Positions 1 to 46,994 of a stretch of 46,994 nucleotides of DNA are shown piece after piece. The number at the start of each line of letters is the position of its first letter. Within the stretch, counting starts at the first letter, position 1. The notes beneath the pieces were generated by a model that saw nothing but the letters and a program-made list of their open reading frames with translations, was not told where the DNA came from and made no database searches. The position numbers and the translations under genes were made by a program. The stretch lies in the IMG/VR virus record IMGVR_UViG_3300001471_000004. One strand, written 5' to 3'. This DNA is from a virus.

Positions 1-938
1 AGCGGCGTCGGGTTGACCACTGCCGTGCCATTCGCGCGCATGTAGTTGGTGATCGCCCAATTGCCGAGCCCACCACTGCTCTTGCCGAGATAAACCGCAA
101 CGGCGGTGTCGCCCGCCGCAGCGGCGATATTAGCCGCCCCTGGCGTCTGGATGCAGCCACCAACCGTCGCGCAACTCGTCTGGTTCCAGGTGATCGTGAG
201 CGGCGACGTGAACGTGACCTGATAGTTGGGGTACGTCGTCGTCGCCGTCTGACCGAAAGACGTGATCGTGGTCGAGCCAGTGATACTGACGTTGTGTGAT
301 GAGACGGTGCCCAGATCGGTGGTCGTCGCCGAAGCGAGATTAGTGAGTGGCCCGACACCGCCATATTGCACGCCCCCGCAATTCGTACACTCGAACTCGC
401 TGCCATCCCATTGGGCAATGACAATCTGGTTAGCCTGTATCTCGCCGCCAATCATCGGCACAGGCCCGTTCGGCCCGATATTATAAAAACTCGGCGGACA
501 AGTCCCGGTCGAACACGCGGGGTTTGTGGTCGCGGTGACGGTCTGCGACGCAACTTCAAGCGTGGTCACACCTGTGTTCGTCAGCGACGCGACGAAGATC
601 ACTGTGTACCCGGTAACGAGCGTAAAACCCGTAGGCGCGGGCGAAGCGAAGGTGATTGCGTTGGCTGTGCCCGTCACCGCCCCGCCGAAGAACACGGATG
701 ATCCGCCCCCGGAAGGCGGGATTGGCGTCGTCAGGCCGAGCAGCGCCGTGATGTCGTTATTTGCGCCTGCTGCAGCCGCGTTGCCGAGACAGACAACCAG
801 CGCGTTATAGTTCGCCATCACCTGACTTGCGTCGGCGGTCGTGCCGTTCTGCAAATTAAAAGGCAAGCTGCAAGTAACGCCCGCCGAAGCCGCGGACACC
901 CACAGCGAAAATATAAACCCAACAATCCAGCGCTTCAT
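1..938 (-). CDS. Tail-fibre-like protein, 5' part only (same gene as 42907-44619)
   Basis: ATG at 938 preceded by GAGGG. The N-terminus MKRWIVGFIFSLWVSAASA/G looks like a Sec signal. The gene is truncated only by the window edge. Confidence 0.7.
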   Translation of the reverse strand, partial: MKRWIVGFIFSLWVSAASAGVTCSLPFNLQNGTTADASQVMANYNALVVCLGNAAAAGANNDITALLGLTTPIPPSGGGSSVFFGGAVTGTANAITFASPAPTGFTLVTGYTVIFVASLTNTGVTTLEVASQTVTATTNPACSTGTCPPSFYNIGPNGPVPMIGGEIQANQIVIAQWDGSEFECTNCGGVQYGGVGPLTNLASATTTDLGTVSSHNVSITGSTTITSFGQTATTTYPNYQVTFTSPLTITWNQTSCATVGGCIQTPGAANIAAAAGDTAVAVYLGKSSGGLGNWAITNYMRANGTAVVNPTP

Positions 939-945
939 GGTGCCC

Positions 946-2607
946 TCACTGCTGCAGGTAGCCGAGCACCTCATAGCGAAGGTGCAGCCGACCAATCTTG
1001 ATCCCCGACGCACAGACGCCCGTCGCGACGATTGCCATCCGGCGAAACACGATAGGAAAATGCCACTGGAGCGGGCGCGGGTAAAGAGCGTTCGCAACGC
1101 CTTGCCATAACGCCTGATCCCAAATAAACGCGCCCCACAAAGTAGCGGAGCCTGCGGGAACAACCGTCACCGTATCAAGCACCACGCCATTTTGATCTTG
1201 CGAGGTGACCGTGATCGTGTTGCCGGCAACTAGCGCCATATGAAGCGTCGTCTCGACCATCGCCACCTCGGCCATCTGATCGGTGTCAGGAAGCATCGGC
1301 GTCGCCCAATTGAAATTCATCGCGACGCCGTTCTCGACATATGTCGTGCTTGAGGACTGTGCCGTGTCACTTTGAAATAGTGCGGCCGTGCCTTGTAGCG
1401 CGACGATGAACGAGTTAGCATAGGCGGCCATCAACGAAGCGGCTTGCGTGTGAGGCCCGGACCAGATGGTGCGAACGAAGTCATACCACCACTGCTGCTG
1501 CGGATTACCCGACGCGCCGCCGTTCTGCAGCTGCACTCGATAGATGCCGTTGTTGTAAGCGGCGCACATGCGCGACGGTGTGAGCGCCGAGACGAATGGC
1601 GCGGCAATGCCATCGCCGTCTACGCCGATCGGGTCCCCTACGTTCGCGCCGAAATCAATGACACGCACGCCGTCCGGCGCGACAAAGGCCAAGCCCTTGG
1701 GCGTCGAGACAATTGTGTTAGCCGCGTACGTTCCGGTGCCAGGATTGAGCGCATTGAGCGACAAATTCTGCAACGCGTAGTCGCCAGTGATCTGGTAGAT
1801 ATTGGTGACGCCCTTGAACACCATCATCGACTGGAGGACGCCGCCAAGCTGGTTGTCGAGCGGCACACCCCCCGCGCCAGTCAAAGGAACGTTGTCGCCG
1901 AAAGTCAGTATCTGGTTCGCGTTCGTGATAATCGTCGGCGTCAGCGGGTCGGAGAAGTACGCGGCTGGCATCTGATTTGGTGGATTGACGAGGAAGTAGC
2001 AGCGACCGTTGAAATTAAAAACCCATGTCGGTGGGGCGATCAGCGTGTTGGTCGTCGTATTCTGCGCACTCCATGCCGGCGCCGCGGGGTTGGTGATATC
2101 GAGCACGCCAAAATAGGCGTTGCCCGCACCGGTAAAGCCAGGGTGCGAGAATATGATCGTCGAACCCACCAGCGCCATCGACGGTGGGCTCCAAGGGCCG
2201 GCAGTCTGCGGGCTGATTGGTGTGTTTACAGCCGTGACACCAGAAATCGCTGTATAGAGCCCGGTCAGGATGTTGTACGCAAAAGGCTCGTCGTGCCCTG
2301 GATTGCGGGAGGTAGAAACCATCCCGTAGACCCACGTTCCGTAGACGCGATAAACAGAGACGAACGTCGGACCGACGAAAAGATCGGGTCCGAACGCGCT
2401 AGAAAACGCCGCCGACCAGGGCCGATTGGCGCCAACAAAATTAGCTAATGAAATCGCTGCCGGGCGACACTGCCACAGATCCCGCGTAGTTGGGTCGGGG
2501 ATCAGGTTCGTCAGCGCGCCCATTGCACCTTTCGGCGCGGTCGAGCTATCGAGGGTGTCAGACGCGCCTCGTGGTGACCAGACCAGTGGTTTGCCCGGTA
2601 AGGCCAT
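946..2607 (-). CDS. Virion structural protein, 553 aa (possible tail nozzle/tubular-B-like; family not recognised)
   Basis: Dominant long ORF with the stop 8 nt upstream of the fibre ATG. Gly/Thr/Asn/Pro-rich, beta-type composition, located among tail genes. Confidence 0.6.
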   Translation of the reverse strand: MALPGKPLVWSPRGASDTLDSSTAPKGAMGALTNLIPDPTTRDLWQCRPAAISLANFVGANRPWSAAFSSAFGPDLFVGPTFVSVYRVYGTWVYGMVSTSRNPGHDEPFAYNILTGLYTAISGVTAVNTPISPQTAGPWSPPSMALVGSTIIFSHPGFTGAGNAYFGVLDITNPAAPAWSAQNTTTNTLIAPPTWVFNFNGRCYFLVNPPNQMPAAYFSDPLTPTIITNANQILTFGDNVPLTGAGGVPLDNQLGGVLQSMMVFKGVTNIYQITGDYALQNLSLNALNPGTGTYAANTIVSTPKGLAFVAPDGVRVIDFGANVGDPIGVDGDGIAAPFVSALTPSRMCAAYNNGIYRVQLQNGGASGNPQQQWWYDFVRTIWSGPHTQAASLMAAYANSFIVALQGTAALFQSDTAQSSSTTYVENGVAMNFNWATPMLPDTDQMAEVAMVETTLHMALVAGNTITVTSQDQNGVVLDTVTVVPAGSATLWGAFIWDQALWQGVANALYPRPLQWHFPIVFRRMAIVATGVCASGIKIGRLHLRYEVLGYLQQ

Positions 2608-2631
2608 CCACGAGGAACCTCTGCAACGAGG

Positions 2632-3537
2632 TTAGAACTTGTATTCGAGCGATGCGCGTACGAGGTTCTCGGCGTTGAAGCTCGCGGTCGCCGCGTTCGC
2701 CACGCCGACTGACGCCGAACCATAGTTCAGGTAACGATACCCGATGTCGAGAATGATCTTCGGCGCGATGACGAACTTCGCACCAGCCCCTGTCTCGAAG
2801 CCCGTGGCGAAGCCGCGCTCGACGATGCCGGCCGCGACATAGAGGGATATCAGGTCGGCCGTCAGGTTGCTCGGCACGACAACCGGCGCCTGCGTGCCGA
2901 AGATGCCGGACAGCGTCCCGCCGACCTGCGCCTCCTGGTAAGCGAGCACACCGCCTTCGTTGTTCGTCACCCCGCCCACGTTGACCTGGTCGCCAACGCC
3001 GGCCTCGATCGCGAGGAACGTGGTGCCGTTCCAATACTGCCAACCCCCGTTGACGAAGGGGATCGCGCCGGCCGCGAAGACGGAACCGGATAGCCCGCTG
3101 CCGATGATGTCGGCGTTCGTGCCGTTGCCCGCGAAGCCACCGCCGACATACCAGCCAGTGCAGTAGACCGTCGTGCACCCCGAAGTCGCGGAGGGCGGCG
3201 TCTTGGTCACCACCTGCGCGCTGGCCGGCGTAATCGCGGCCAGCAGCCATGACAGCGCAACGGCGAGGAACAGAAGCTGCGCGACGTTGCCCACACTGCC
3301 GTCACGGTGATAGCCGGGGATTGCAGGCGGTGTCTCGGCGTAGCTCTTGGCGAGGTGCGACCACACACCAACGGCGAGCGTCGCAATAGCAGCGGCGATC
3401 TCGATCTGCGTCGCCGGATCGACCCACTGATTGAACATGGGCCATCGGCCGCTCACCATAACGAACAGCGCCCCGACGCCGCTACGCACCCAGCCGGCGA
3501 GCTTGCTGGTGTTCACCAGCGCAAAAATCAAATCCAC
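2632..3537 (-). CDS. In-frame ORF: N-terminal 2-TM segment, then a Sec-type signal, then an Omp25/Omp31-like 8-stranded outer-membrane beta-barrel. It may be made as two products from an internal GTG at 3294.
   Basis: GGAGG followed by 5 nt and GTG at 3537. Hydrophobic stretches are LAGWVRSGVGALFVMVSG and IEIAAAIATLAVGVW. An internal signal AQLLFLAVALSWLLAAITPASA/Q follows. The mature part starts CTGWYVGGGFAG, has alternating beta-strand patterns and ends in the OMP beta-signal ASLEYKF. Confidence 0.65.
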   Translation of the reverse strand: MDLIFALVNTSKLAGWVRSGVGALFVMVSGRWPMFNQWVDPATQIEIAAAIATLAVGVWSHLAKSYAETPPAIPGYHRDGSVGNVAQLLFLAVALSWLLAAITPASAQVVTKTPPSATSGCTTVYCTGWYVGGGFAGNGTNADIIGSGLSGSVFAAGAIPFVNGGWQYWNGTTFLAIEAGVGDQVNVGGVTNNEGGVLAYQEAQVGGTLSGIFGTQAPVVVPSNLTADLISLYVAAGIVERGFATGFETGAGAKFVIAPKIILDIGYRYLNYGSASVGVANAATASFNAENLVRASLEYKF

Positions 3538-3546
3538 AGCCACCTC

Positions 3547-4020
3547 CTACGGATCGAGAATGGGGTTGAGCAGCGACAGGACCGATCCCTGTATCGGATT
3601 GGTGTCGAGCTTCAATTCGCTCGTCTTGATGTGCGGTATTGTTACCCCGCTCACCCCGTCGAGCGTCTTGTTCAGTTCGTCAGTGTAATCCTGCATTTTG
3701 GCGTTGGCAACGGCGTTCCCGTCGTCGGAGTATTTGTGGATAAGCGCCAGATTTGCGTGTTGAAACGCTTCGTCGACCGGCCGCAACGCCGTAATCGATT
3801 GACCAATCTGCACGCGCAAGCCGCCGCCGAGATCGTAAATCTGCACCGCCGTCTTTTCGATCTGGCCATCCTTGATGATCTTCTGATAGCCGTCGAGCAT
3901 CAGCAGACCTTGCAAAACCTGCCGCGCCTGCCGGATCGTCAGCGGCTGCGGCGGATCGGCCGCCAGCGCCTGGCTGATAGCCGCGATACAAAACAACCCG
4001 ATCAACAAAACCCGCGTCAT
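3547..4020 (-). CDS. Secreted/periplasmic protein of unknown function, 157 aa
   Basis: ATG at 4020 with GGGAG 6 nt upstream. Signal peptide MTRVLLIGLFCIAAISQALA/ADPP. The upstream 57 codons of the tracked ORF overlap the fibre gene end and lack an SD. Confidence 0.6.
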   Translation of the reverse strand: MTRVLLIGLFCIAAISQALAADPPQPLTIRQARQVLQGLLMLDGYQKIIKDGQIEKTAVQIYDLGGGLRVQIGQSITALRPVDEAFQHANLALIHKYSDDGNAVANAKMQDYTDELNKTLDGVSGVTIPHIKTSELKLDTNPIQGSVLSLLNPILDP

Positions 4021-4072: not shown

Positions 4073-5452
4073 TCAACATGCGGTAACGAGACCACCAACG
4101 ACGGTCGGTAACACCGCACAGGTCTTGGAGACGCCAGCCGTACCGCCGGATTTATACCCACCAACGACGTTAAGCGTCTGATCCTGCCCAAAAGTTGCCG
4201 CTAGCGTTTCCGTGATCGAACTATTAGGCGTTGTGTAAATTGCACACTGCGTACCCAACGCGCTACCGTGTGTCCAGTTTTGAGTGGCCGAGCAACGTAT
4301 TTCGCCCGTACCGACTACGTTAGCAGTTCCGTCGTAGCCGCCGATCAATTGCTGCATCAACAAATCCCCGCTCGCTACAGCGGTTGGAGAAGCTACTGTA
4401 CCGTGCGCCTCTACAAAAGTGACTGCTGGATTAGTAGCGCCGAAACCAAAGATCACTAGCCCGTACCCAGATGCCGAGCTTTCTACAATATCAAGCGCTC
4501 CTGCCGCCCCTGACAGAGTTGGAGCACCGCTTGTAGCTGTCCAGTTTATGATCGGCGTCGCAGCGACGGACAAACCCGTCCCCTGCAATTTCCCCGAAAT
4601 ATTAGTGAGCAACTCCGGCGCATTTCCACTGCCGATGTTGGTTGTACCTTCCGTGATTGTCGTAACGGACGCGGCCGCCCACGCCGGCAGACCTCCGCTA
4701 ACCGTGAGCACTTGAGCAGATAACCCGATCCCCAAACGTGTAAGTACACCACTTGAGTTGCGATAGTACGTATCGCCTGTAGCGTCCGACCCTAACGTCA
4801 TAGTGACGCCCGCAACAACGAAACCGGTGCTGGCCGTCCCTGCCGTAAGCGTACCGACCGTGGCGATGTCCGTCCCCACAAGCTTACTTGCCGCGATTGA
4901 ACCGGCGAGATCGGCATTCGTCACCAGACCCGTAGCCGTGAACGCGCTTGTCACCGTCAGCCCGGAAATTGAAGGCGACGTAGCAAGCACCACGCTACCC
5001 GAACCGGTAACGCCGTTGCTTAAATCCGAGGCCGCAGGCTGCGTCGACGACGGCACACCACTCGTCGATATCGCGTTGATCCACTGGTGAGATACCGCAG
5101 CGTACGACTGAATTCCACCCAGGGTACTTGCACTTGGGTTTGGCAGCTGCGCTGCGGCCACCGTGCCTGATATGTTGCTGAACGTCGGCTGCGCGCACGA
5201 AAGCGAGCTTAGCGTCGCAAAGCCGGTCACAAACTGATTTGTTGGACAGGCAAGCGACGAGCCACCATTAGCGTCGAGCCACGAGTTGACCATGTTCGTA
5301 AGCAGCGTAGTCATCGTCGCAGGCGTGATCGAGCCCGGCGTGCTCGTCAACGTCGCCGTGATCTGGGAAAGAAGCGCCGCTTTCGTATTTTGCGCGTGCA
5401 CCGGCGTCGCCAGGGCAACGAGAACCGCGACCAAAAGGGCGATGCGTTTCAT
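4073..5452 (-). CDS. Tail-fibre-like protein, 459 aa, with Sec-type N-terminus
   Basis: N-terminus MKRIALLVAVLVALATPVHA/QNTK. Ser/Thr/Gly/Ala-rich fibre-type repeats. The C-terminal Cys-containing knob (GVSKTCAVLPTVVGGLVTAC) resembles the C-terminus of the 11205-12440 product. Confidence 0.65.
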   Translation of the reverse strand: MKRIALLVAVLVALATPVHAQNTKAALLSQITATLTSTPGSITPATMTTLLTNMVNSWLDANGGSSLACPTNQFVTGFATLSSLSCAQPTFSNISGTVAAAQLPNPSASTLGGIQSYAAVSHQWINAISTSGVPSSTQPAASDLSNGVTGSGSVVLATSPSISGLTVTSAFTATGLVTNADLAGSIAASKLVGTDIATVGTLTAGTASTGFVVAGVTMTLGSDATGDTYYRNSSGVLTRLGIGLSAQVLTVSGGLPAWAAASVTTITEGTTNIGSGNAPELLTNISGKLQGTGLSVAATPIINWTATSGAPTLSGAAGALDIVESSASGYGLVIFGFGATNPAVTFVEAHGTVASPTAVASGDLLMQQLIGGYDGTANVVGTGEIRCSATQNWTHGSALGTQCAIYTTPNSSITETLAATFGQDQTLNVVGGYKSGGTAGVSKTCAVLPTVVGGLVTAC

Positions 5453-5453
5453 T

Positions 5454-6188
5454 TCACCACCCGATGTTCTTGGTGTTCTTCAACTGATCAAACGGCCGCC
5501 CCCACCGCCTGCGATCTTTACCTACCGTGTGTACCGCACCCTCTCGATCCTCGACGTTCTTCAGATACGCGTTTAGCAGCGTCCCCGCACCGAGCGGATA
5601 CCGCATCGGGTCGTCGCCAAGGTACTCGGCCTGTCGGCTGTCGCCGGTGATCCCCATCAAGCGGCCGGCGAGGCTACGTATCAAAATCTGCGTATTGAGA
5701 AACCACGGCACCGTCGTGCTTGTCTGCGGGCTGGCAATGTCGGGCATGAGTTTGTAATAGCGCAGCGTGCACGGATAGCCTCCACTTGCCGGGGGCCACA
5801 CAAACAGTTGCGCGGGTGACTGCGAGAGGTCGGTCGCGTAGTTGTACGGGTAGGAATTAAAACCCGGTGTCTGCACCAGCCAATCATACTCGGCCTTAGT
5901 GACCTGGATCAGGGGGTACGGCACACCTTGGATCGTGTAGAAAAACTCATCCTTGCCGTCCTTGACCTGCGTACGCAGATAGTCGGCCGGTAAAAGGTAC
6001 GGACCCGATCCGTTACCCGCCGCCGAATTGAACGAGAAGACGAAGGTGCCAAGCGCTGCGTCGAGATCGTAGTTCTGACAAAGATCCTGTAGCGTAGCGT
6101 TCAACAACTGCCCGGCCTGCAAAACCATACCGGGACACTTAGCTTCCTGCGTTGCGAGAGTGACAATCTGCTGTGCCTGAAGCCCCAT
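5454..6188 (-). CDS. Tail tubular-A/adaptor-like virion protein, 244 aa
   Basis: ATG at 6188 overlaps the upstream stop (ATGA). Its position and N-terminal pattern loosely resemble podovirus gp11-type proteins. This is a weak assignment. Confidence 0.45.
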   Translation of the reverse strand: MGLQAQQIVTLATQEAKCPGMVLQAGQLLNATLQDLCQNYDLDAALGTFVFSFNSAAGNGSGPYLLPADYLRTQVKDGKDEFFYTIQGVPYPLIQVTKAEYDWLVQTPGFNSYPYNYATDLSQSPAQLFVWPPASGGYPCTLRYYKLMPDIASPQTSTTVPWFLNTQILIRSLAGRLMGITGDSRQAEYLGDDPMRYPLGAGTLLNAYLKNVEDREGAVHTVGKDRRRWGRPFDQLKNTKNIGW

Positions 6189-6637
6189 CAATCCACCGGA
6201 TGTATCTTCGCCTCGCAGGCTGCGATGTCGAGCTTGAGCTCGACGATCTTCTGCCGATATCGCTCGATATTGGTTTTGGCAGTGCCCTTCTGCGCAATTT
6301 CGTTCGGCGACATCTTTACCGGACCCTTGCGCTGCGACGCTGCCCACGCCTTCTCCGCACGAGCCTCAATGCCGTTAAAATCTTCCTCCATGTTTTTCAG
6401 CGTCGTCACATGGAGTTCGAGATTGGCTTTAAGCCCGTCAAGCTGATACTTCGCCTGCTGTCGATCGACAGCCTCGCCGAGCTTATCGAGCATGTCGTGA
6501 TACGCGCCCACCGGATCGTCGCGGCCGATATAGGTCTGCATCACGATCATGCGGCCGTTGTCGATCGTCACCTGCACCGTAATGGCGCAAGCCAATTCCT
6601 CCGCACCCGGAGGGCTTTTCACCTGGGGGACTTCCAC
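6188..6637 (-). CDS. Hypothetical virion-module protein, 149 aa, coiled-coil C-terminal half
   Basis: ORF in operon frame, translationally coupled to the downstream gene. Confidence 0.6.
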   Translation of the reverse strand: MEVPQVKSPPGAEELACAITVQVTIDNGRMIVMQTYIGRDDPVGAYHDMLDKLGEAVDRQQAKYQLDGLKANLELHVTTLKNMEEDFNGIEARAEKAWAASQRKGPVKMSPNEIAQKGTAKTNIERYRQKIVELKLDIAACEAKIHPVD

Positions 6638-7754: not shown

Positions 7755-9095
7755 TTAGCCGAACGTCGAGTTGAACGCGGACGTGCTCTCAATCCGCATC
7801 ATGAACTGCGAATTGGTGATCAGCGTTCCGTAGAAATTCTTCCAGCCGACCACACGCAACTGATTGAGCGGGTCCGACTTGTCGGCGTTCTTGAGGTACG
7901 TGAACTCGGCATTCTGCAGCACGACCTGCGAGTACGCCCCACGCCCGAAAACGAACGTCGGATAGACGGTGACGCCGGTCGCGGGCGCTGCGGGCGGCAC
8001 TTGCGCGACGCCGAGCGCCGTGATCATGCACACCGTGTTCGGCGGCAACTGCGTCGCTTGTCCCTGCAGCGGCCCGGTCGTCGGACCCTGCACGGAGACA
8101 CCAAGATTGAACGGCGACGTCGTTGTGCCGATGTAGGCGTTGTACGTGTAGCCGGGGGTGTTTGGCGTGGTGAACTGCACTGCGCCGTTCGCCAGCACGA
8201 CGACGCCGGCCGACACCTGATAAATCTGGCTCTCGTACTGGTTCTGCGTGTCCTGGCCGGTGAGCTGGATGTAATAGGTGCCGGCCGCGAGTGCGCCACC
8301 GCCAACCGCCGCACCGTTGATGGCCGCAACACCAGTCCACGACGGCACCATGTTGGTCTGACAGAAGCGGATACCACGCCACTCGCCCGCCTCGTAATTG
8401 TACAGCCGGTTGAGATCGCTATACGACCAGGCCGTGACGACCGTCGAATTTTCGGAAAAGTCGCCGACGACGAACGGATGACACACCGCAACGTAGTGCG
8501 GCATCTTGCGCGGATTGCTCGACGCCTTGGCGCCGCCCGCGTCCGCTTCGAGCTTCATGTCGGTGACTTCATCGCCCATGTAGCGCGGAGCGCCGAGGTT
8601 GCTGAGCATCGCGGTCGCGCGATTGATCTCGTGCGGGTTGATCACGTCGCCGGTGACGAGCGATGCGCGCGCACCGCGACTGTTCACATAATTGATCTGC
8701 GAGCCCGCCATCAGGTTGTTGAAGGTGTTGCGCTCCATGGTTTCGGAAAGCTGAAGCGCGACGAGCTCGATCGCTTTCTTGAACAGCGGATGCTTGATCG
8801 TCATCTCCGCAACATCGGTAATGGTGATCTTGTCACCCCACTGCTGGGCCTGCGCGGAGACCTGCTGCAGCGTCATCGTCTGCCCGATGGGCGGAACACC
8901 CTCGGACAACGGCGCGTAAGGCAGCGGCACGCGGTTGTAGCGGCTCGCGGTGTAAGTTACGCCCTGGCCTTTGGGGAGCGTCGCCGGGTCGCCGAACTGA
9001 TAAACGACCAACTGGCGCCGCGCGAGGGGAAGCGTCTTCGCCGCAATATACGGGCTTATGTCGCCGGAAAATTGGGCTGCACTGTTCGTGGGCAT
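7755..9095 (-). CDS. Major capsid protein, 446 aa (HK97-fold, N4-gp56-like)
   Basis: It follows the scaffold gene. The N-terminal block (YIAAKTLPLARRQLVVYQFG...GQGVTYTASRYNR) and C-terminal block (VYPTFVFGRGAYSQVVL...LRVVGWKNFYG) match my recollection of N4-gp56-type capsid proteins. Confidence 0.75.
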   Translation of the reverse strand: MPTNSAAQFSGDISPYIAAKTLPLARRQLVVYQFGDPATLPKGQGVTYTASRYNRVPLPYAPLSEGVPPIGQTMTLQQVSAQAQQWGDKITITDVAEMTIKHPLFKKAIELVALQLSETMERNTFNNLMAGSQINYVNSRGARASLVTGDVINPHEINRATAMLSNLGAPRYMGDEVTDMKLEADAGGAKASSNPRKMPHYVAVCHPFVVGDFSENSTVVTAWSYSDLNRLYNYEAGEWRGIRFCQTNMVPSWTGVAAINGAAVGGGALAAGTYYIQLTGQDTQNQYESQIYQVSAGVVVLANGAVQFTTPNTPGYTYNAYIGTTTSPFNLGVSVQGPTTGPLQGQATQLPPNTVCMITALGVAQVPPAAPATGVTVYPTFVFGRGAYSQVVLQNAEFTYLKNADKSDPLNQLRVVGWKNFYGTLITNSQFMMRIESTSAFNSTFG

Positions 9096-10082: not shown

Positions 10083-10376
10083 CTAGCGACGCGGCAAACT
10101 ATCCACTTGCCCTTGTAGGTGATCGAGCTGCTTCACGGCCGCGTCTACCTTAGCCGACACCCCCGCCGCCGCAGCGTTCGTCACCGCCTGCGCGTCGATC
10201 ATCTTACCAAGCTGAGCCCAAATCTGCTGGTTAGAGAATTTCAAATCCGAAAGCGTCGTCGACAGAAAATACCCCAAGACCGCGACAACGAGCGGCATAA
10301 AAAACCGCGCAAGCGTGATCGCCGTCGTACTATCGATGAATTTGCGAAACGAAGGACCGAGCTCGTCGCTGCTCAA
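10083..10376 (-). CDS. Single-pass membrane protein with coiled-coil C-terminus, 97 aa (holin/antiholin or i-spanin-like)
   Basis: TTG start at 10376 with GGGAGA 6 nt upstream and a TTGA overlap with the upstream stop. TM segment FFMPLVVAVLGYFLST. Confidence 0.5.
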   Translation of the reverse strand: MSSDELGPSFRKFIDSTTAITLARFFMPLVVAVLGYFLSTTLSDLKFSNQQIWAQLGKMIDAQAVTNAAAAGVSAKVDAAVKQLDHLQGQVDSLPRR

Positions 10377-10606
10377 CGTGTGTCTCCCAAAATTTCTGCC
10401 CGACCGGCCAAAACTCCCTTAGCGTGCTCGGACTGCCCCGTTACCTCTACGAGCGCGTCCTTTATGCTGTTCGTATTTTTTTCGAGGCTTGCGATGACTT
10501 CCGCATTCCGGCGCTGCGTGTTCCAGGTAAACAGCTGCGCGAGTGCGCCGAGCAGCACCCCAAAGCCAAGCGCGCAATCCCCGACAGTCTTGATCGTATC
10601 GAGCAT
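10373..10606 (-). CDS. Single-pass membrane protein, 77 aa (holin-like)
   Basis: TM segment CALGFGVLLGALAQLF followed by a charged helical tail. It lies directly downstream of the endolysin. Confidence 0.5.
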   Translation of the reverse strand: MLDTIKTVGDCALGFGVLLGALAQLFTWNTQRRNAEVIASLEKNTNSIKDALVEVTGQSEHAKGVLAGRAEILGDTR

Positions 10607-10612
10607 CGAAAG

Positions 10613-11140
10613 CTACCCCGCGACTAGCGTACGCGCATTCAGCTGTACGAACGCAACCCGCTCCATCCAGCCGTGATCGAACTTCGCGTCGACCGGATGC
10701 GCCGCCTCGATCTCTTTGTACACCTTGATCCGCTCGACCGTCATCGCCTCAACGAGCTTCATCGGATCTGCCTTTGACAGCGCAGCGCTCGTCACCACGC
10801 CAATATGTCCGTCAGCCGTGACGCCAAGCGCCCGCTGCAGAACAAGCACCGCTTCGTGAAACCCGCTGTTCACGCTCTCGTCGAAGAAAACGTAATCAGC
10901 ACCCGCGGGCAACACCGGACAGTACGGCATCCAAAACCCACGGTGATATATGTCGTCGATGACTGGATCAGGTGCTTTCCATACGTCACCTTGAGGCAAG
11001 CCCGCTACCTGACAATACGAATTGAAAGAACGCTGCGTGATCCCGCGCGACGTGCGCCCACCCGCGTCGTCGGGATCATCGACGTTACCACCTTCCGATA
11101 CGCGCACCCAGGCGAGGGCCTTTGGCCAGCTGGTGTCCAT
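10613..11140 (-). CDS. Endolysin: GH108-type muramidase domain plus PG_binding_3-like C-terminus, 175 aa
   Basis: Motif VSEGGNVDDPDDAGGRTSRGIT is the GH108 EGG...DP.D.GG.T..GI signature. ATG at 11140 with a GAGG SD. Confidence 0.75.
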   Translation of the reverse strand: MDTSWPKALAWVRVSEGGNVDDPDDAGGRTSRGITQRSFNSYCQVAGLPQGDVWKAPDPVIDDIYHRGFWMPYCPVLPAGADYVFFDESVNSGFHEAVLVLQRALGVTADGHIGVVTSAALSKADPMKLVEAMTVERIKVYKEIEAAHPVDAKFDHGWMERVAFVQLNARTLVAG

Positions 11141-11204
11141 TACCGCCTCGCGTAAATAACGAGCGTGGGTGCGTCGTCGAAGAAAAATATGACAGCGTAG
11201 GGGA

Positions 11205-12440
11205 TCATGAGCACGTACCACCCGTGCCTGTCGCGGCGGTAATAATGCCATTCGTGATTGTGATGCTAGCAATGACAGTAAGCGCACCAGAGCACGTCAC
11301 GCCCTTCGTTCCGTTCGCGTAGTACGCTGCGGCAGAATTAATTGTGCCTGCTCCTTCATTACCGCCTGTAGGGGCTCCTACCGCCAGACCGCCTGCAACT
11401 ACACTCCCTGTAGCCGTCCAGCTTTGCGATAAGGTTGAACCGGCTGCAATGCCCACCGTGTTTGTAGCAGGTAAGTACATTCCATTAGCGGGCACACTAG
11501 ACCCTGTCGGAAAGAAAGCGGTACATTTTAAATTCCCCGATCCTGTGGGTACTGAGCACACCGTACCCCCGCCGCTGTTCAAAAATATAAGATCAGAACT
11601 CGAACCCTTTCCCATCAAGGTTAGACCGTTAGCGCTCGCCAGATATACGGCACCTTCGCCATTGGCGCTCATAGTTGGGCCTGATATTATTCCGCCAAAG
11701 ACGTTGGTGCCAGCCGCCATTGTGGGCGCAGTCGTGCCCGTCACCGTAAAGAGCGCAGAGCCGGTATGGCCACCTGACGTAATCGTGCTGGCGTCCGGCA
11801 TTGTAACGGTGCCAGTGAAGGTCGGCGACGCAAGCGGCGCGTACGCAGTCGAGTTGAAAGCATTCGTACCAAGCGATCCGCCTACTCCCGATGACGTGAT
11901 TGCTGAACCACCACCAATGACAACGGAAGTAGCCGAAGCTGCGCCAAGGGTGGGCGTAACAAACGTGGGCGATGTTGTAGCAGATATTGCGCCGGAACCA
12001 TTAAGCGTAAGACCCAACGCCGTATTAACGTTAGTCCCTAGACTAGCAATCGCTACGTACGTAGCCGACAATGATGGGATATCGGCAGCCACAAGCGCAC
12101 GGAACGAGGGCGTGTTCGCGATGCCAGTCGTCGGCCCGGCGAACACCGTATTCGCAGTCTGGTTCTGGAGCGTCGCGCTGAGCGTGCCGGACACGGTCAC
12201 CGGCGATCCCGTCACAGCGAAAACTGATGCTGGCAATGAAAGCCCAACACTCGTTACGGTGCCCGCCCCGCTCCCATCAATACAAAAATTACCATTCACG
12301 TCGACAGTAAGTGGCTGCGTCGAACCGACAGGATACGCTTGTGGAAGCACTCCGCAAACCGCAACAACCAGCGCGTCTTGCGCGTGCGCAACGCCAAGCG
12401 ATGAGAACAATAAAGACAGCGCGATGAGGATCGCCCTCAT
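11205..12440 (-). CDS. Tail-fibre-like protein, 411 aa, with Sec-type N-terminus
   Basis: ATG at 12440 with an ATGA overlap. N-terminus MRAILIALSLLFSSLGVAHA/QD. Ser/Thr/Gly-rich repeats, with motif FAGPTTGIANTPSFRALVAADIPSL. C-terminal knob YYANGTKGVTCSG... Confidence 0.65.
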   Translation of the reverse strand: MRAILIALSLLFSSLGVAHAQDALVVAVCGVLPQAYPVGSTQPLTVDVNGNFCIDGSGAGTVTSVGLSLPASVFAVTGSPVTVSGTLSATLQNQTANTVFAGPTTGIANTPSFRALVAADIPSLSATYVAIASLGTNVNTALGLTLNGSGAISATTSPTFVTPTLGAASATSVVIGGGSAITSSGVGGSLGTNAFNSTAYAPLASPTFTGTVTMPDASTITSGGHTGSALFTVTGTTAPTMAAGTNVFGGIISGPTMSANGEGAVYLASANGLTLMGKGSSSDLIFLNSGGGTVCSVPTGSGNLKCTAFFPTGSSVPANGMYLPATNTVGIAAGSTLSQSWTATGSVVAGGLAVGAPTGGNEGAGTINSAAAYYANGTKGVTCSGALTVIASITITNGIITAATGTGGTCS

Positions 12441-12607
12441 GACAAGCACGCCTGGCCGCTGGTGTTGACCGTGATCGACCGCGTCGAGCCGACCGCGTAC
12501 GCGACAGGCAGCGTCCCGCACGTCGCCACGACGTAGGCACCCCCACCGTCAGCCTTGAGCGAAGTCGCCAAGCACACAAAAATCAGCGCTATAAAAAAGC
12601 GTGACAT
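12437..12607 (-). CDS. Small secreted protein, 56 aa; paralog of the N-terminal module of the downstream fibre
   Basis: ATG at 12607. Signal MSRFFIALIFVCLATSLKA/D. The mature part AYVVATCGTLPVAYAVGSTRSITVNTSGQAC aligns with ALVVAVCGVLPQAYPVGSTQPLTVDVNGNFC (18 of 31 identical, both Cys conserved). Confidence 0.55.
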   Translation of the reverse strand: MSRFFIALIFVCLATSLKADGGGAYVVATCGTLPVAYAVGSTRSITVNTSGQACLS

Positions 12608-33516: not shown

Positions 33517-34857
33517 TTACGCGCTCAAGCTGAGTGGAATTGTCGAGAACTCCATGCCCGTCGCGTAGCCCATCCGCTGCAAATCGGGCAGCTGCTTCTT
33601 CAGACGCCGTCCGATATCCGTCCGGTACATCGGGGAGTTGGGCATGATCAATGTCTTTAAGCGACGGTATACTGTGTCGGTCGCCGTCTTCACGTCGTGC
33701 CCCGTGCCCGACATCACCAGGACGTAGTCCCCCGCCGTCACCATCATGGGCACGACCGCGAAACTGTCTTTGATCTTGATCGGCGCCATGCCCATCATCA
33801 TCTCGCAAGGATGAACGTGATCCCACGTCTCCTGCTTGAGCCCGTAGATCGGTACGCCGATCACTTCCTTCCTCGTCAAGTGCGAGTACGGATAGTCGGG
33901 TATGGAGACGACTACGCCAGCCGCCACTCCGTTCATCACCCAGTTGTGTGCGTCCTTGCCGTGCCATAGGTTGTCAAGCCACTCGACGTGATCGCCCTCG
34001 TGGAGCGCCTGCTGGATGTTGAACGTCGGCCAGCCGGGGCGCATGGTGAATTCCAGAGGCCACGGCGTACCATTGTCGTCGATTATACAATTGACGTCAA
34101 CGTACCCGCAGTAGTGGGCGCGGGCGAGCTCGTCTGCGAGCGGCGCCAAGACTTTGCGGGCGAGCTTCGAGGTGCGCACGTAGCGAAGAATAGTGCCCTG
34201 CTCGCCGGTGGCCACCCCCATGTCATCGTTCATTAGCTTTTTGAATTCAAAGTTCTCGCACCAGCCGGCGTTGAAGCCGCCAGGGCCGAACCAGGCCCCC
34301 ACGGCCATCTCGATGCCAGGCATGAATTCTTGCAGGATGAACGGCGACTTGAGCTTGCCGAGCTTCTTCCACCGCTGCAGCATGTAAATCATGTCGGCTG
34401 GCGTCTTCGAGCAGTACGACAGCGCCTTGTCGGCGTCGCCTGACGGCTTCGACACAAACCGCCGATCCTCGCGCTTGACGTAGGCGATGGCCTGATCGTA
34501 GTCGTTGAATTCCTTATAGGCGGGCACTTCGATGCCGTGTTTTTTGAGCACCTTCATGCCGACCGTGCGATCGAGCTCCCATTTCGCCGTCTCGATCGAG
34601 GCGCCGACCGCCTTCACCCCTTCGTCGCGCCAGCGCTGATCGAGATCGTAGGTGTAAAACGTGTTGTCGGTCATGAAGACGAGGTGCGCCCACCGCACCC
34701 ACTGACGATAATCGTCGACCAGCGTCACGAGCCCTTTGCCGATGTGCTTGGTCTTCTCGGTCTTGCGGACGGCTAGCCGCACCTCGTGGCCGTCGCGCTG
34801 AGCGCGGAGCGCGAAGTCGAGGCCGTTACCTTGGGGATCTATGATGAGAACACGCAT
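33517..34857 (-). CDS. PurD (GAR synthetase)-like ATP-grasp ligase, 446 aa
   Basis: MRVLIIDPQGNGLDFALRAQ is a pre-ATP-grasp N-domain. RFVSKPSGDADK and ILQEFMPGIEMAV are ATP-grasp B-domain/hinge elements. YCGYVDVNCIIDDNGTPWPLEFTMRPG is the C-domain, but the canonical PurD FGDPE motif is absent. Confidence 0.7.
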   Translation of the reverse strand: MRVLIIDPQGNGLDFALRAQRDGHEVRLAVRKTEKTKHIGKGLVTLVDDYRQWVRWAHLVFMTDNTFYTYDLDQRWRDEGVKAVGASIETAKWELDRTVGMKVLKKHGIEVPAYKEFNDYDQAIAYVKREDRRFVSKPSGDADKALSYCSKTPADMIYMLQRWKKLGKLKSPFILQEFMPGIEMAVGAWFGPGGFNAGWCENFEFKKLMNDDMGVATGEQGTILRYVRTSKLARKVLAPLADELARAHYCGYVDVNCIIDDNGTPWPLEFTMRPGWPTFNIQQALHEGDHVEWLDNLWHGKDAHNWVMNGVAAGVVVSIPDYPYSHLTRKEVIGVPIYGLKQETWDHVHPCEMMMGMAPIKIKDSFAVVPMMVTAGDYVLVMSGTGHDVKTATDTVYRRLKTLIMPNSPMYRTDIGRRLKKQLPDLQRMGYATGMEFSTIPLSLSA

Positions 34858-40590: not shown

Positions 40591-41148
40591 TCAGTCTCCA
40601 ATCCACTTGCCGTGCACCACGTCTTCGGCGACGTAACCGAGGCGCTTGAATAGCACATTCACCTTGCGGCCGCCACTATTGGCGAAGTGCGCCTTTTCCG
40701 CCACCGCGATCTTCTGGACGCCCGCCGACTTCAGAAATCGCTCATTCTCGCGGAACAGTTTTAGCCCGAGCAGCCCGAAGCGATACGCTGGGTGCAGCCA
40801 GTACATATCGACGACACCGAAGCGCGTCGAGCGCTTGTGCAGGTTCGGGCCGATGATATTGAAAATGTAGCCCACTAGCGCCGGGCCGTCGCGCACGGTC
40901 ACGATTTGCAGGATGCCGAGCCGATCAAGGTCGAAATAGCGGTCCCAATCAGGATCGAGCGGCGCCCGGTCACGATCAACCGCGAGCTCGGCGTGATGCT
41001 TTTTAAACAGCGCGGGAAGCTCGCGCGCGATGACGCCGAGCCGCTGTCGCTGGATCGTGACGCCCCGGTACGCGACCGGCTGGCTAAGCGGTTCGAGGGC
41101 CGATGGTGGGTTGCTGAGGCGCGGTTTCTTTACGTGTCGTGTTTGCAT
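40591..41148 (-). CDS. GNAT-family N-acetyltransferase, 185 aa
   Basis: ATG 41148 with GGGAG 5 nt upstream. GNAT-like core: LVGYIFNII...VVDMYWLHPAYRFGLLGLKLFRENERFLKSAGVQKIAV. Confidence 0.6.
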   Translation of the reverse strand: MQTRHVKKPRLSNPPSALEPLSQPVAYRGVTIQRQRLGVIARELPALFKKHHAELAVDRDRAPLDPDWDRYFDLDRLGILQIVTVRDGPALVGYIFNIIGPNLHKRSTRFGVVDMYWLHPAYRFGLLGLKLFRENERFLKSAGVQKIAVAEKAHFANSGGRKVNVLFKRLGYVAEDVVHGKWIGD

Positions 41149-41222
41149 CGACACTCCCACTCGGCGGCTTCATGCTGCTGTCGACCGGCTGCGCGGAGCG
41201 GTCCTTCATGCCGGCGTGCATA

Positions 41223-42906: not shown

Positions 42907-44619
42907 CTAGTTGGCGTTTACGTTGTCCTTGTAGGCCAGGATTTGGACAAGGCCATTCGCCGCCCCGTTGATGCTGACATAGATCGTAGCTGTCTCCAAC
43001 TTCATCCACCCTGTTGCGGTGGTGACCGCCGTATTGAGCCCAAGCGGCGGCGGGTTTGGCGTTTCAAGGCTTTCGTACGTGTTATTCGGCGCCGCGCACG
43101 TTGCTGCCGCCGAAGCGGCGTCCGCCCCTACCAGGACGAGCTCGACATCGGTCGCGGTCGACGGCGCCCACAAAGGCGCCACCCCGGACGTACCCGCAAT
43201 CGTCTCTGCCGCCCATGTAGGTGTTGTCGACGTGGTTCCACAGCTGGTTCCACCATTCAAATGCTGCGCTACGACGGGGAGGGTCGAGAGGTTCGCCCCA
43301 CCGTTCACGTACTGGGTAACCGCACCCGTCGTGCGAAAACCGTAGAAGTTGGCCGATCCGTTCGTCTTGCTAGCACCAAGGCGGCACAAATAAATATACC
43401 CGCTCGGCATCGTCGGTGACGTCGCAGAGGCACTGTCAAGCCCGGCCGTCGTCGTGCCGTTGCTGATCAAGTAGTGATTGTACATCGTGTTGTTGCCGAG
43501 CGACACGGCATCGAGACCGTTGGCGCCGTTGATGGTGTCGTTGATCGCGACCGAGACACCGGTCACATAGATTGGCACGTTGCCGGTCGGATTGATGAGC
43601 ACCGCCGAACCGGCCGTGATGTCGATCTTGGTGTTCGGCGTACCCGTGTCGTTGTAGATCGCTAACCCAACCGCGCCGCACAGCGGCGTCGGGTTGACCA
43701 CTGCCGTGCCATTCGCGCGCATGTAGTTGGTGATCGCCCAATTGCCGAGCCCACCACTGCTCTTGCCGAGATAAACCGCAACGGCGGTGTCGCCCGCCGC
43801 AGCGGCGATATTAGCCGCCCCTGGCGTCTGGATGCAGCCACCAACCGTCGCGCAACTCGTCTGGTTCCAGGTGATCGTGAGCGGCGACGTGAACGTGACC
43901 TGATAGTTGGGGTACGTCGTCGTCGCCGTCTGACCGAAAGACGTGATCGTGGTCGAGCCAGTGATACTGACGTTGTGTGATGAGACGGTGCCCAGATCGG
44001 TGGTCGTCGCCGAAGCGAGATTAGTGAGTGGCCCGACACCGCCATATTGCACGCCCCCGCAATTCGTACACTCGAACTCGCTGCCATCCCATTGGGCAAT
44101 GACAATCTGGTTAGCCTGTATCTCGCCGCCAATCATCGGCACAGGCCCGTTCGGCCCGATATTATAAAAACTCGGCGGACAAGTCCCGGTCGAACACGCG
44201 GGGTTTGTGGTCGCGGTGACGGTCTGCGACGCAACTTCAAGCGTGGTCACACCTGTGTTCGTCAGCGACGCGACGAAGATCACTGTGTACCCGGTAACGA
44301 GCGTAAAACCCGTAGGCGCGGGCGAAGCGAAGGTGATTGCGTTGGCTGTGCCCGTCACCGCCCCGCCGAAGAACACGGATGATCCGCCCCCGGAAGGCGG
44401 GATTGGCGTCGTCAGGCCGAGCAGCGCCGTGATGTCGTTATTTGCGCCTGCTGCAGCCGCGTTGCCGAGACAGACAACCAGCGCGTTATAGTTCGCCATC
44501 ACCTGACTTGCGTCGGCGGTCGTGCCGTTCTGCAAATTAAAAGGCAAGCTGCAAGTAACGCCCGCCGAAGCCGCGGACACCCACAGCGAAAATATAAACC
44601 CAACAATCCAGCGCTTCAT
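42907..44619 (-). CDS. Tail-fibre-like protein, 570 aa, with Sec-type N-terminus
   Basis: ATG 44619 with a GAGGG SD. N-terminus MKRWIVGFIFSLWVSAASA/G. It carries the fibre-type motif ANNDITALLGLTTPIPPSGGG and a Cys-rich segment. Confidence 0.7.
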   Translation of the reverse strand: MKRWIVGFIFSLWVSAASAGVTCSLPFNLQNGTTADASQVMANYNALVVCLGNAAAAGANNDITALLGLTTPIPPSGGGSSVFFGGAVTGTANAITFASPAPTGFTLVTGYTVIFVASLTNTGVTTLEVASQTVTATTNPACSTGTCPPSFYNIGPNGPVPMIGGEIQANQIVIAQWDGSEFECTNCGGVQYGGVGPLTNLASATTTDLGTVSSHNVSITGSTTITSFGQTATTTYPNYQVTFTSPLTITWNQTSCATVGGCIQTPGAANIAAAAGDTAVAVYLGKSSGGLGNWAITNYMRANGTAVVNPTPLCGAVGLAIYNDTGTPNTKIDITAGSAVLINPTGNVPIYVTGVSVAINDTINGANGLDAVSLGNNTMYNHYLISNGTTTAGLDSASATSPTMPSGYIYLCRLGASKTNGSANFYGFRTTGAVTQYVNGGANLSTLPVVAQHLNGGTSCGTTSTTPTWAAETIAGTSGVAPLWAPSTATDVELVLVGADAASAAATCAAPNNTYESLETPNPPPLGLNTAVTTATGWMKLETATIYVSINGAANGLVQILAYKDNVNAN

Positions 44620-44626
44620 GGTGCCC

Positions 44627-46288: not shown

Positions 46289-46312
46289 CCACGAGGAACC
46301 TCTGCAACGAGG

Positions 46313-46994
46313 TTAGAACTTGTATTCGAGCGATGCGCGTACGAGGTTCTCGGCGTTGAAGCTCGCGGTCGCCGCGTTCGCCACGCCGACTGACGCCGAA
46401 CCATAGTTCAGGTAACGATACCCGATGTCGAGAATGATCTTCGGCGCGATGACGAACTTCGCACCAGCCCCTGTCTCGAAGCCCGTGGCGAAGCCGCGCT
46501 CGACGATGCCGGCCGCGACATAGAGGGATATCAGGTCGGCCGTCAGGTTGCTCGGCACGACAACCGGCGCCTGCGTGCCGAAGATGCCGGACAGCGTCCC
46601 GCCGACCTGCGCCTCCTGGTAAGCGAGCACACCGCCTTCGTTGTTCGTCACCCCGCCCACGTTGACCTGGTCGCCAACGCCGGCCTCGATCGCGAGGAAC
46701 GTGGTGCCGTTCCAATACTGCCAACCCCCGTTGACGAAGGGGATCGCGCCGGCCGCGAAGACGGAACCGGATAGCCCGCTGCCGATGATGTCGGCGTTCG
46801 TGCCGTTGCCCGCGAAGCCACCGCCGACATACCAGCCAGTGCAGTAGACCGTCGTGCACCCCGAAGTCGCGGAGGGCGGCGTCTTGGTCACCACCTGCGC
46901 GCTGGCCGGCGTAATCGCGGCCAGCAGCCATGACAGCGCAACGGCGAGGAACAGAAGCTGCGCGACGTTGCCCACACTGCCGTCACGGTGATAG
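46313..46994 (-). CDS. Omp25/Omp31-like beta-barrel ORF, 5'-truncated by the window end (same gene as 2632-3537)
   Basis: Identical to 2632-3313. The internal GTG at 46975 corresponds to 3294. Confidence 0.6.
   Translation of the reverse strand, partial: YHRDGSVGNVAQLLFLAVALSWLLAAITPASAQVVTKTPPSATSGCTTVYCTGWYVGGGFAGNGTNADIIGSGLSGSVFAAGAIPFVNGGWQYWNGTTFLAIEAGVGDQVNVGGVTNNEGGVLAYQEAQVGGTLSGIFGTQAPVVVPSNLTADLISLYVAAGIVERGFATGFETGAGAKFVIAPKIILDIGYRYLNYGSASVGVANAATASFNAENLVRASLEYKF

Follow-up and report, generated by a model that had tools for sequence, protein, structure and literature searches.

The locus described here raises the question of why a soil phage would encode, among its tail genes, a single polypeptide in which two predicted inner-membrane helices run directly into an outer-membrane β-barrel. 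The gene is located in IMG/VR virus record IMGVR_UViG_3300001471_000004; the window is the whole stretch of this viral DNA that was analyzed, 46,994 nucleotides. An earlier note, made from the letters only, had described a block of two open reading frames (ORFs), the first encoding a 157-residue secreted protein and the second, of 301 codons, combining two transmembrane (TM) helices with a barrel, and it had listed superinfection exclusion, receptor masking and help with lysis as possible functions. Both ORFs were found in that position, on the minus strand. The 301-residue ORF is interpreted here as a natural fusion of two neighboring lysis-module genes, which would yield a cleaved holin–barrel precursor with a role in lysis; the probability attached to this package as a whole is roughly 0.5. 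The gene is subdivided as follows:

2632..3537, minus strand: fused ORF of 301 residues, comprising a holin-like hairpin, an internal signal peptide and an outer-membrane barrel; stop codon at 2632..2634.
3340..3537, minus strand: holin-like domain, residues 1–66, with two hydrophobic helices, assigned from hydropathy and the family alignment.
3217..3294, minus strand: internal signal peptide VGNVAQLLFLAVALSWLLAAITPASA, residues 82–107, with a predicted signal peptidase I cut after A107.
2635..3216, minus strand: predicted mature 8-stranded outer-membrane barrel, residues 108–301 (194 residues), assigned from an AlphaFold2 (AF2) model and Foldseek.
3543..3548, minus strand: Shine-Dalgarno sequence AGGAGG, 5 nucleotides upstream of GTG 3537, overlapping the TAG stop codon of the 157-residue ORF.

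GTG 3537 is the likely start codon of the fused ORF. The first GTG, at 3543, abuts the Shine-Dalgarno sequence and would give a product of 303 residues (2632..3543). Homologues of the protein start with MDL, in agreement with GTG 3537, and an independent gene call in an ENA soil-metagenome assembly, which is 100% identical to the window across 5.5 kb, likewise yields 301 residues. Full-length homologues are P0003, P0028, P0032 and P0038. The hydropathy profile contains a weak segment at residues ~ 13–29 that includes R18, a second segment at ~ 42–63 and the strongest at ~ 85–107, which ends in ASA/Q (the slash marks the predicted cut). These segments and the EYKF C-terminus are as the earlier note had described them, and so is the continuity of the reading frame: no stop codon occurs between the two-TM part and the barrel part, the sole in-frame internal start ahead of the signal segment is GTG 3294, and no Shine-Dalgarno sequence is present in the 20 nucleotides upstream of it. 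The fused ORF has no match in PHROGs, NCBIfam or PADLOC. Its GC content is 64.9%, compared with 59.6% for the genome and ~ 57–58% for the neighboring ORFan and fiber gene; this excess hints at a cassette acquired from elsewhere.

The assignment of the C-terminal part as an 8-stranded outer-membrane β-barrel precursor with its own signal peptide, already proposed in the earlier note, is supported by the structural model. The barrel forms a block of eight main strands with predicted local distance difference test (pLDDT) scores mostly between 80 and 92, and the top Foldseek matches are small outer-membrane barrels only, the best in the PDB being the OmpA transmembrane domain, NspA, Ail, OmpX and OprF-N (E values of 5e-6 to 1e-3). 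The fold is preceded by a Sec-type signal (ASA/Q) and ends with a C-terminal aromatic residue (EYKF); this Phe, F303 in the 303-residue numbering, is nearly invariant across the family. The predicted mature N-terminus is QVVTKTPP, and the N-terminal periplasmic stretch of the barrel is proline-rich (KAPP). The family motifs are a conserved CxxxxC pair, GNGTNADIxGSG and the C-terminal EYKF. Residues ~ 121–156 of the 301-residue protein include two of these: the invariant CxxxxC pair sits just ahead of strand 1, and the nearly invariant GNGTNADIxGSGLSGSVF lies between strands 1 and 2 and corresponds to the first external loop in the model, where pLDDT is low; the external loops of host outer-membrane proteins are usually their most variable parts.

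The barrel was labeled 'Omp25/Omp31-type' in the earlier note, an assignment that closer comparison does not support. The window protein scores 15.8 bits (E 0.016) against Pfam OMP_b-brl (PF13505), below the gathering cut-off of 28.7 bits, which is reached by the relatives P0001 (33.8 bits) and P0002 (28.7 bits); 36 of the 71 long forms described below match this family at E ≤ 0.01. Likeness to Omp25, Omp31 and Omp2b lies in the OMP_b-brl superfamily, the proline-rich stretch and the cleavage region, where AxA followed by x-Asp is found in ~ 100 of 146 relatives; a stricter predictor has the mature protein begin with Ala-Asp in 59 of the 146. The mature N-terminal Ala-Asp of Hyphomicrobiales barrels ties the barrel to peptidoglycan (PMC12729407). 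In contrast, the predicted mature window barrel starts with QVV, its Pfam score is below the cut-off, it carries the CxxxxC and GNGTNADIxGSG motifs of its own family, and no cellular relatives appeared in a pattern scan of 185,579 species genomes, a scan that detects only sequences sharing the chosen motifs. The Joint Genome Institute (JGI) label on the relatives is 'opacity protein-like surface antigen'. These sequence comparisons place the barrel family in the OMP_b-brl superfamily as a divergent branch specific to phages. At E ≤ 1, the window protein has no Pfam match to the Ail/Lom family (PF06316), and the resemblance of the modeled barrel to Ail is one of fold, not of sequence membership.

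The fused layout recurs throughout this family. A word-indexed search returned 21 relatives, most of ~ 215 residues (signal peptide plus barrel) and five of ~ 280–311 residues. When 1.84 billion cluster representatives were searched exhaustively with HMMER, 201 hits were obtained at E ≤ 1e-3. Relatives were counted as cluster representatives at 50% identity, and the position of the mature N-terminus was projected onto the 162 sequences that contain the barrel. The distribution is bimodal: the position falls at ~ 20–45 in ~ 80 sequences and at 80–150 in 65, with none at 50–80. Thus, ~ 65 of 162 barrel relatives, or ~ 40% of the family, are fused, and the architecture that the earlier note had considered unusual is real but not a one-off. 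In all long forms, hydrophobic helices are followed by a basic stretch and a signal peptide, in that order. By motif count, 62 of 65 fused and 71 of 81 unfused relatives retain an AxA/xD or AxA/Q cleavage motif, which makes release of an anchor by signal peptidase, a suggestion of the earlier note, the most plausible processing. A methionine able to serve as an internal start is present in only 33 of the 65 fused forms; in many of them, therefore, the barrel would be made only via the precursor.

These data also bear on the possibility of an artefact, in which two genes look fused because an error of sequencing or assembly masks the stop codon or frameshift that separates them. Many relatives do have the holin-like gene and the barrel gene apart, as such an error would lead one to expect. 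However, the fusion is real, recurrent and natural, because the independent ENA assembly is identical and gives the same 301-residue product, and because 65 divergent cluster representatives share the layout; among them, P0003 aligns end to end with the window protein at ~ 50% identity, with frame-preserving indels. An artefact is accordingly rated as exceedingly improbable, and the hidden stop codon raised in the earlier note is not borne out. In a neighbor-joining tree of the barrels, fused and unfused forms are fully intermixed (45 changes, versus 43.6 after shuffling); the tree is probably too poorly resolved for counting separate fusion events.

In a Pfam scan of the 71 long forms, the sole non-barrel families were Phage_holin_10 (19 of 71, best E 8e-15) and Holin_SPP1 (1 of 71). 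The N-terminal extensions comprise several two-TM families that look unrelated, as judged from the three largest clusters and those recognizable by motif. All-against-all BLAST clustering over-merged the extensions, placing 48 of 73 in one cluster, probably owing to their hydrophobic composition and leftover signal-peptide residues. In the family of the window N-terminal domain (MDL..FVNTSK.GGW.R....WSH.AK), the alignment shows K12, G15, R18, V21, Q44, W59, S60 and K64 to be invariant. Stand-alone homologues of 84–90 residues exist (P0022, P0117 and P0152), and P0022 is encoded two genes downstream of an endolysin-like gene in locus L004, the C-terminus of which resembles, by eye, a GH108/PG_binding_3 endolysin. 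On the coding strands of the window genome, the fused N-terminal domain is the sole small two-TM candidate. From its sequence features, this part of the window protein is considered a holin-like inner-membrane domain.

The resemblance to class II holins and pinholins (phage 21 S68; Phage_holin_10, Pam3 gp28) consists of small size, two helices, a weak and charged first helix and a basic stretch that follows; the matches of the fused relatives to Phage_holin_10 and the position of P0022 near an endolysin-like gene point the same way. The window protein differs from these holins in that its domain matches no holin model and in that, after the predicted cleavage, a third helix, the signal peptide, would remain with its C-terminus outside. 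To our knowledge, such a topology has not been described for holins.

Fusions of the window-type holin-like domain are not confined to barrels. In P0111 (231 residues) and P0123 (208 residues), it is followed by a lipoprotein signal, with LSAC and LGAC lipoboxes identified by eye, and then by a Cys-containing domain of ~ 110 residues. In P0157 (242 residues), it is followed by a signal peptide and another non-barrel domain. The C-terminal domains of these three proteins have no Pfam match. The window-type domain thus appears to have been joined repeatedly to exported partners.

The genomic neighborhoods of relatives in which the barrel is encoded near an endolysin gene are listed below in gene order:

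L001 and L010: secreted small protein, Peptidase_M15_4 endolysin, two-TM protein of 124 residues, protein of 68–74 residues (depending on the gene call), barrel.
L002: GH24 lysozyme, two-TM protein of 99 residues, protein of 67 residues, barrel.
L012: GH24-like protein, two-TM protein, protein of 70 residues, barrel.
L011: 278-residue PG_binding_1 protein, two-TM protein, protein of 57 residues, barrel.
L013: homologue (by eye) of the 278-residue protein of L011, four small ORFs including a two-TM protein, then barrel.
L023: GH25 protein, two-TM protein of 101 residues, protein of 64 residues, barrel.
L020: GH25 protein, two-TM protein of 151 residues, barrel.
L021: Phage_lysozyme (GH24), one ORF, barrel.
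L006 and L007: GH108 endolysin overlapping the start of a fused Phage_holin_10–barrel gene.
L014: weak GH19 match two genes before the fused gene.

An endolysin is encoded within a few genes upstream of the barrel in ~ 10 of 18 independent loci with enough context, and at least five endolysin types are represented. A barrel beside such varied endolysins conforms to the mosaic pattern typical of lysis cassettes, and on the basis of gene order the unfused barrel is regarded as a recurrent lysis-cassette gene. The stand-alone two-TM proteins of L001, L002, L011, L012 and L023 match fused N-termini (P0113, P0051, P0124, P0057, P0039, P0019, P0044, P0033 and P0062) with phmmer E values of 1e-5 to 5e-16, obtained with a small database. 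The same two-TM family is therefore found both beside the barrel and fused to it. Among the functions that the earlier note had listed, help with lysis provides the best fit to these comparative data.

In the unfused cassettes, a small soluble protein of 57–74 residues is encoded between the two-TM and barrel genes (L001 5798..6004, L002 5801..6004, L011 4206..4379, L012 5738..5950, L015 4887..5096 and L023 4757..4951), and it is missing from the fused genes. Several of these small proteins share, by eye, an ..AQIAQ.EA.IP.. motif, and no Pfam or PHROG family was matched in the single case examined. L013 has a 103-residue ORF with one TM segment at a comparable place.

Locus L015, a 9.7-kb IMG/VR contig, comes from a phage closely related to that of the window, with 83% identity in the capsid, 77% in the adaptor and 65% in the 549/553-residue tail protein, and it has the unfused arrangement at the corresponding position. 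Its slot between the adaptor and tail genes contains a two-TM gene of 117 residues, a 69-residue gene and a barrel gene with a signal peptide. The L015 barrel is only 37% identical to that of the window, its two-TM and 69-residue genes have no homologue in the window, and the slot contains neither a 459-residue fiber-like gene nor the 157-residue ORFan. Since an unfused trio occupies the same slot, this tail-gene position appears to hold a replaceable cassette of two-TM protein plus barrel, of which the window carries the fused version. The holin-like nature of the two-TM part, the recurrence of the barrel family in lysis cassettes and the frequency of the fused layout had all escaped the earlier note.

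A search for spanins was made by lipobox. No credible o-spanin or u-spanin ORF with a lipobox was seen in six frames of the window by a simple pattern scan run without a known-spanin control, and the same simple pattern gave none in 18 loci when the surroundings of the barrel from − 3.5 to + 2.5 kb were scanned. In the relatives, the barrel is often followed by one-TM proteins whose tails look like coiled coils. In L002, the barrel is the last gene ahead of a strand switch.

The endolysin gene and further candidate lysis genes elsewhere in the window are the following:

10613..11143, minus strand: endolysin with GH108 and PG_binding_3 domains, probable start at the Met of MDTSWPK.
10373..10606, minus strand: ORF of 77 residues with one TM segment, after the endolysin; weak PHROG holin match (E 0.016).
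10083..10376, minus strand: ORF of 97 residues with one TM segment, after the endolysin; tail appraised by eye.

No signal or signal-anchor-release (SAR) segment was seen in the sequence of the GH108 endolysin, which should therefore need a holin. The tails of the 77- and 97-residue ORFs look helical and coiled-coil-like by eye, and these two ORFs are alternative holin or i-spanin-like candidates. The endolysin and the two ORFs are placed inside the head-gene block, between a 438-residue gene and putative scaffold and capsid genes, distant from the holin-like fused gene.

The proposed mechanism was inferred step by step, with model support for the barrel fold only. The gene would be read with the late genes from GTG 3537, and the two N-terminal helices would insert as a hairpin with both the N- and C-termini inside. 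The third hydrophobic segment would act as an internal Sec signal and carry the barrel domain over the inner membrane, whereupon signal peptidase I would cut after ASA107 to give a holin-like inner-membrane protein of ~ 107 residues and a free barrel of 194 residues. The β-barrel assembly machinery (BAM) would insert the barrel in the outer membrane via its C-terminal EYKF. The inner-membrane product may be the holin or part of it, letting the signal-less GH108 endolysin reach the wall, and the barrel would act on the outer membrane as the cell lyses, taking the position that spanins have in other phages. By gene content and order, the comparison links the barrel to the lysis module, not to a specific barrel activity. 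A role of the barrel in the outer-membrane step of lysis is suggested by gene position, repeated fusions and the lack of detectable spanins.

A more specific proposal, that the barrel replaces the lipoprotein o-spanin and is the outer-membrane part of an unrecognized phage lysis system, is possible but doubtful. In that case the barrel may work with the neighboring one-TM proteins, or it may weaken the tethering of barrels to peptidoglycan in hosts that anchor the outer membrane through barrels, and many phages would deliver it as a holin–barrel polyprotein cut by signal peptidase. The likeness to spanins (Rz/Rz1, T1 gp11) lies in the placement of the barrel after endolysin and holin, the pairing of inner- and outer-membrane elements, the coexistence of separate and single-chain versions, and the one-TM proteins with coiled-coil-like tails often found near the barrel. 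However, the outer-membrane element of this family is a predicted β-barrel without a lipobox (ASA/Q) rather than a lipoprotein, the inner-membrane element is a two-TM hairpin without a long periplasmic coiled coil, and the predicted cleavage parts the two products. We know of no membrane-fusion activity in the barrel family. In sum of sequence features, the window barrel cannot be filed as a member of Omp25/Omp31, of Lom/Ail or of the spanins.

Several observations weigh against reading the fused gene as a lysis gene. In the window, it lies among tail genes, ~ 7 kb from the endolysin, and the one-TM ORFs directly after the endolysin are rival holins, the 77-residue one by its PHROG match. The window N-terminal domain matches no Pfam or PHROG holin family, and its first 'TM' helix is weakly hydrophobic and contains the invariant K12 and R18. 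Its comparison with Phage_holin_10-type extensions gave an hhalign probability of 5%, although the layouts agree, and 2 of 13 members of its family match PF23987 weakly (E 0.018); a remote link to Phage_holin_10 is thus not established. No endolysin is seen near the barrel in about 8 of the 18 loci with context. The cleavage after A107 is predicted by sequence rules only, the spanin scan used a simple pattern without a known-spanin control, and literature searches found no paper or experiment linking a β-barrel to phage lysis. Outer-membrane proteins beside lysis genes can also be morons, as in the case of lambda bor.

The possibility that the barrel is such a moron, i.e. a host-derived outer-membrane protein that serves host fitness at common insertion points, with the fusions being incidental losses of stop codons, draws on the comparison with lambda. 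Like Lom, the window protein is a phage-encoded small 8-stranded outer-membrane barrel among tail genes, with the same fold class as Lom and Ail (Foldseek match to Ail, E 4e-4). The Bor gene lies just after the lambda lysis genes, and the unfused barrels of this family likewise adjoin lysis genes. The GC excess of the fused ORF, the location of the L002 barrel as the last gene before a strand switch and the JGI label all count in favor of a moron, as does the Ala-Asp N-terminus that many relatives share with the peptidoglycan-tied barrels of Hyphomicrobiales (PMC12729407). However, lysogens express Lom and Bor from genes of their own, whereas the barrel here is either fused to a holin-like protein or closely coupled to one, and fusion to such a domain precludes expression of the barrel by itself in a lysogen. 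Pfam scans of the window ORFs of at least 200 residues detected no integrase domain, which argues against a role in lysogeny only. Fusion in ~ 40% of the family, to several unrelated N-terminal families and with the cleavage site kept, does not look incidental, and the pattern scan of species genomes revealed no close cellular relative. A moron is considered quite unlikely. Remodeling of the host envelope, the reading proposed in the earlier note, is unlikely too. The barrel would mask or replace a receptor late in infection and thereby block superinfection or the adsorption of progeny to debris, with the hairpin serving only for anchoring or co-expression. Receptor blocking by a phage outer-membrane protein has a precedent in T5 Llp, the Foldseek matches indicate a surface-exposed fold of the Ail/OmpX/Opa kind, and GNGTNADIxGSG, the most conserved motif, could serve a conserved surface function from the first external loop of the model; in addition, the position of the gene in the window and in L015 suggests expression with the tail genes. 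Left unexplained are the association of the barrel with two-TM holin-like genes beside at least five endolysin types, its repeated fusion to them, and the lipoprotein-signal modules on the same holin-like domain. There was also no PADLOC match, and an exclusion protein made only with the holin, at the end of the cycle, would be poorly timed.

If the signal segment instead remained uncleaved as a third TM helix, the protein would be a single-chain tether acting like a unimolecular spanin. T1 gp11 shows that single-chain spanins exist, the fusion does join an inner-membrane to an outer-membrane element, and no spanin-like lipoproteins were found with the simple lipobox pattern in the window or the 18 loci. 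This alternative is nevertheless highly unlikely: the AxA motif is as well kept in fused forms as in unfused precursors, only ~ 20 residues separate the signal segment from the first strand in the model, too few to cross the periplasm, and unfused versions are equally common. Many relatives also keep the Ala-Asp N-terminus, which is expected to need a free amino end. The cleaved holin–barrel precursor thus remains the preferred reading of the fused gene.

The gene directly upstream is the following:

3547..4020, minus strand: ORFan of 157 residues with an ATG start and a cleavable-looking signal peptide (ALA/AD), directly upstream of the fused gene.

Its N-terminus reads MTRVLLIGLFCIAAISQALA/AD, the top hydropathy segment spans residues 1–23, in line with the signal peptide described in the earlier note, and there is no lipobox. 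No match was obtained in Pfam, PHROG, NCBIfam or PADLOC, a search of 5.8 billion proteins returned only the protein itself, and the single-sequence AF2 model is unusable (pLDDT 40). The earlier note had treated this ORF and the fused gene as one block. A functional tie between them is not supported, since the ORF is an ORFan and the syntenic L015 has no homologue. In phage T4, the antiholin RI exerts its regulation in the periplasm and is made with a cleavable signal peptide (PMC8385771). The 157-residue ORF resembles RI in that its product is small and secreted, and it lies immediately ahead of a holin-like gene; it differs in having no sequence similarity to RI, no homologue of any kind and no predictable structure. 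This likeness is a lead, not a finding.

The remaining features of the window that concern the fused gene and its surroundings are:

946..2607: tail gene of 553 residues, flanking the fused ORF.
4073..5452, minus strand: fiber-like gene of 459 residues, flanking the 157-residue ORF.
5454..6347: SU10-type adaptor (Pfam match).
7755..9095: capsid (weak Pfam match).
46313..46994, minus strand: truncated second copy of the barrel ORF, a product of the wrap-around of the 43,681-bp genome.

The two flanking genes are those named in the earlier note. The window consists of the 43,681-bp genome and ~ 3.3 kb of wrap-around (1–3313 versus 43682–46994), and bases 1–300 are repeated directly at 43682–43981, an offset of 43,681. 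The repeat at the window ends points to a circular or terminally redundant contig, not to a real duplication; owing to the wrap-around, the 553-residue tail gene and part of the barrel ORF are listed twice. Other Pfam matches in the window are a family A DNA polymerase, an SNF2 helicase, a DUF927 primase, a PD-(D/E)XK nuclease and a Dam methylase.

The window capsid is 28% identical to that of uncultured Caudoviricetes, and by sequence the phage is only distantly related to cultured ones. A tblastn search of 50,697 GenBank phage records with the fused protein gave no match, and no cultured phage is known to carry this protein. Capsid relatives of 65–83% identity (L025–L031), one of them on a 43,328-bp contig, occur in bins of metagenome-assembled genomes (MAGs) labeled Terracidiphilus, Phenylobacterium, beta proteobacterium, Acetobacteraceae, Thermoanaerobaculia, Vulcanimicrobiota and Chakrabartia. 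These bins probably hold mis-binned phage contigs, and their labels say little about the host; with the capsid relatives spread over bins from Acidobacteriota, Alpha- and Betaproteobacteria and other phyla, the alphaproteobacterial host suggested by the earlier note is not established.

The tail-side genes include one for an ATP-grasp protein similar to phosphoribosylglycinamide synthetase (GARS_A, E 4e-10) and one with a weak match to GNAT acetyltransferases (33517..34857 and 40591..41160, both on the minus strand), unusual content for a structural module. Fiber-like Thr/Gly/Ser-rich proteins open with cleavable-looking signal peptides, for example MKRIALLVAVLVALATPVHA/QNT, MRAILIALSLLFSSLGVAHA/QDA and MNRPLLAIIAVLVAACAAQA/QQP. 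Such proteins are encoded in the window at 4073..5452, 11205..12440 and 12437..12607, all on the minus strand, and in L001 (2944..4680), L002 (3696..4754) and L013 (2125..3882). An N-terminal module, VVA.CG.LP.AY.VGST, is common to a 56-residue ORF and the next gene.

Full-text literature searches found no description of a holin–barrel fusion or of a barrel as a member of a lysis cassette. Some phages that infect Gram-negative hosts lack a recognizable spanin, and their way through the outer membrane has yet to be explained. The barrel family described here is specific to phages, numbers ~ 200 clusters at 50% identity and has so far come from uncultured phages only. Both adjacency and repeated in-frame fusion connect it with holin-like genes, at least five endolysin types lie next to it, and it offers a concrete candidate for lysis genetics. 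The fused gene would also be a rare natural case in which an internal signal peptide splits one polypeptide into inner- and outer-membrane products. Should the barrel be a surface-remodeling or exclusion factor instead, its obligatory coupling to a holin would still need explaining. As a phage outer-membrane protein joined to a holin, the fused protein varies on known kinds; the chance that it stands for a new class of lysis factor at the outer membrane is real, though unproven. If the barrel does act in the manner of an o-spanin, it would add a further class of outer-membrane disruption to those of the two-component spanins, the unimolecular spanins and the disruptin peptides.

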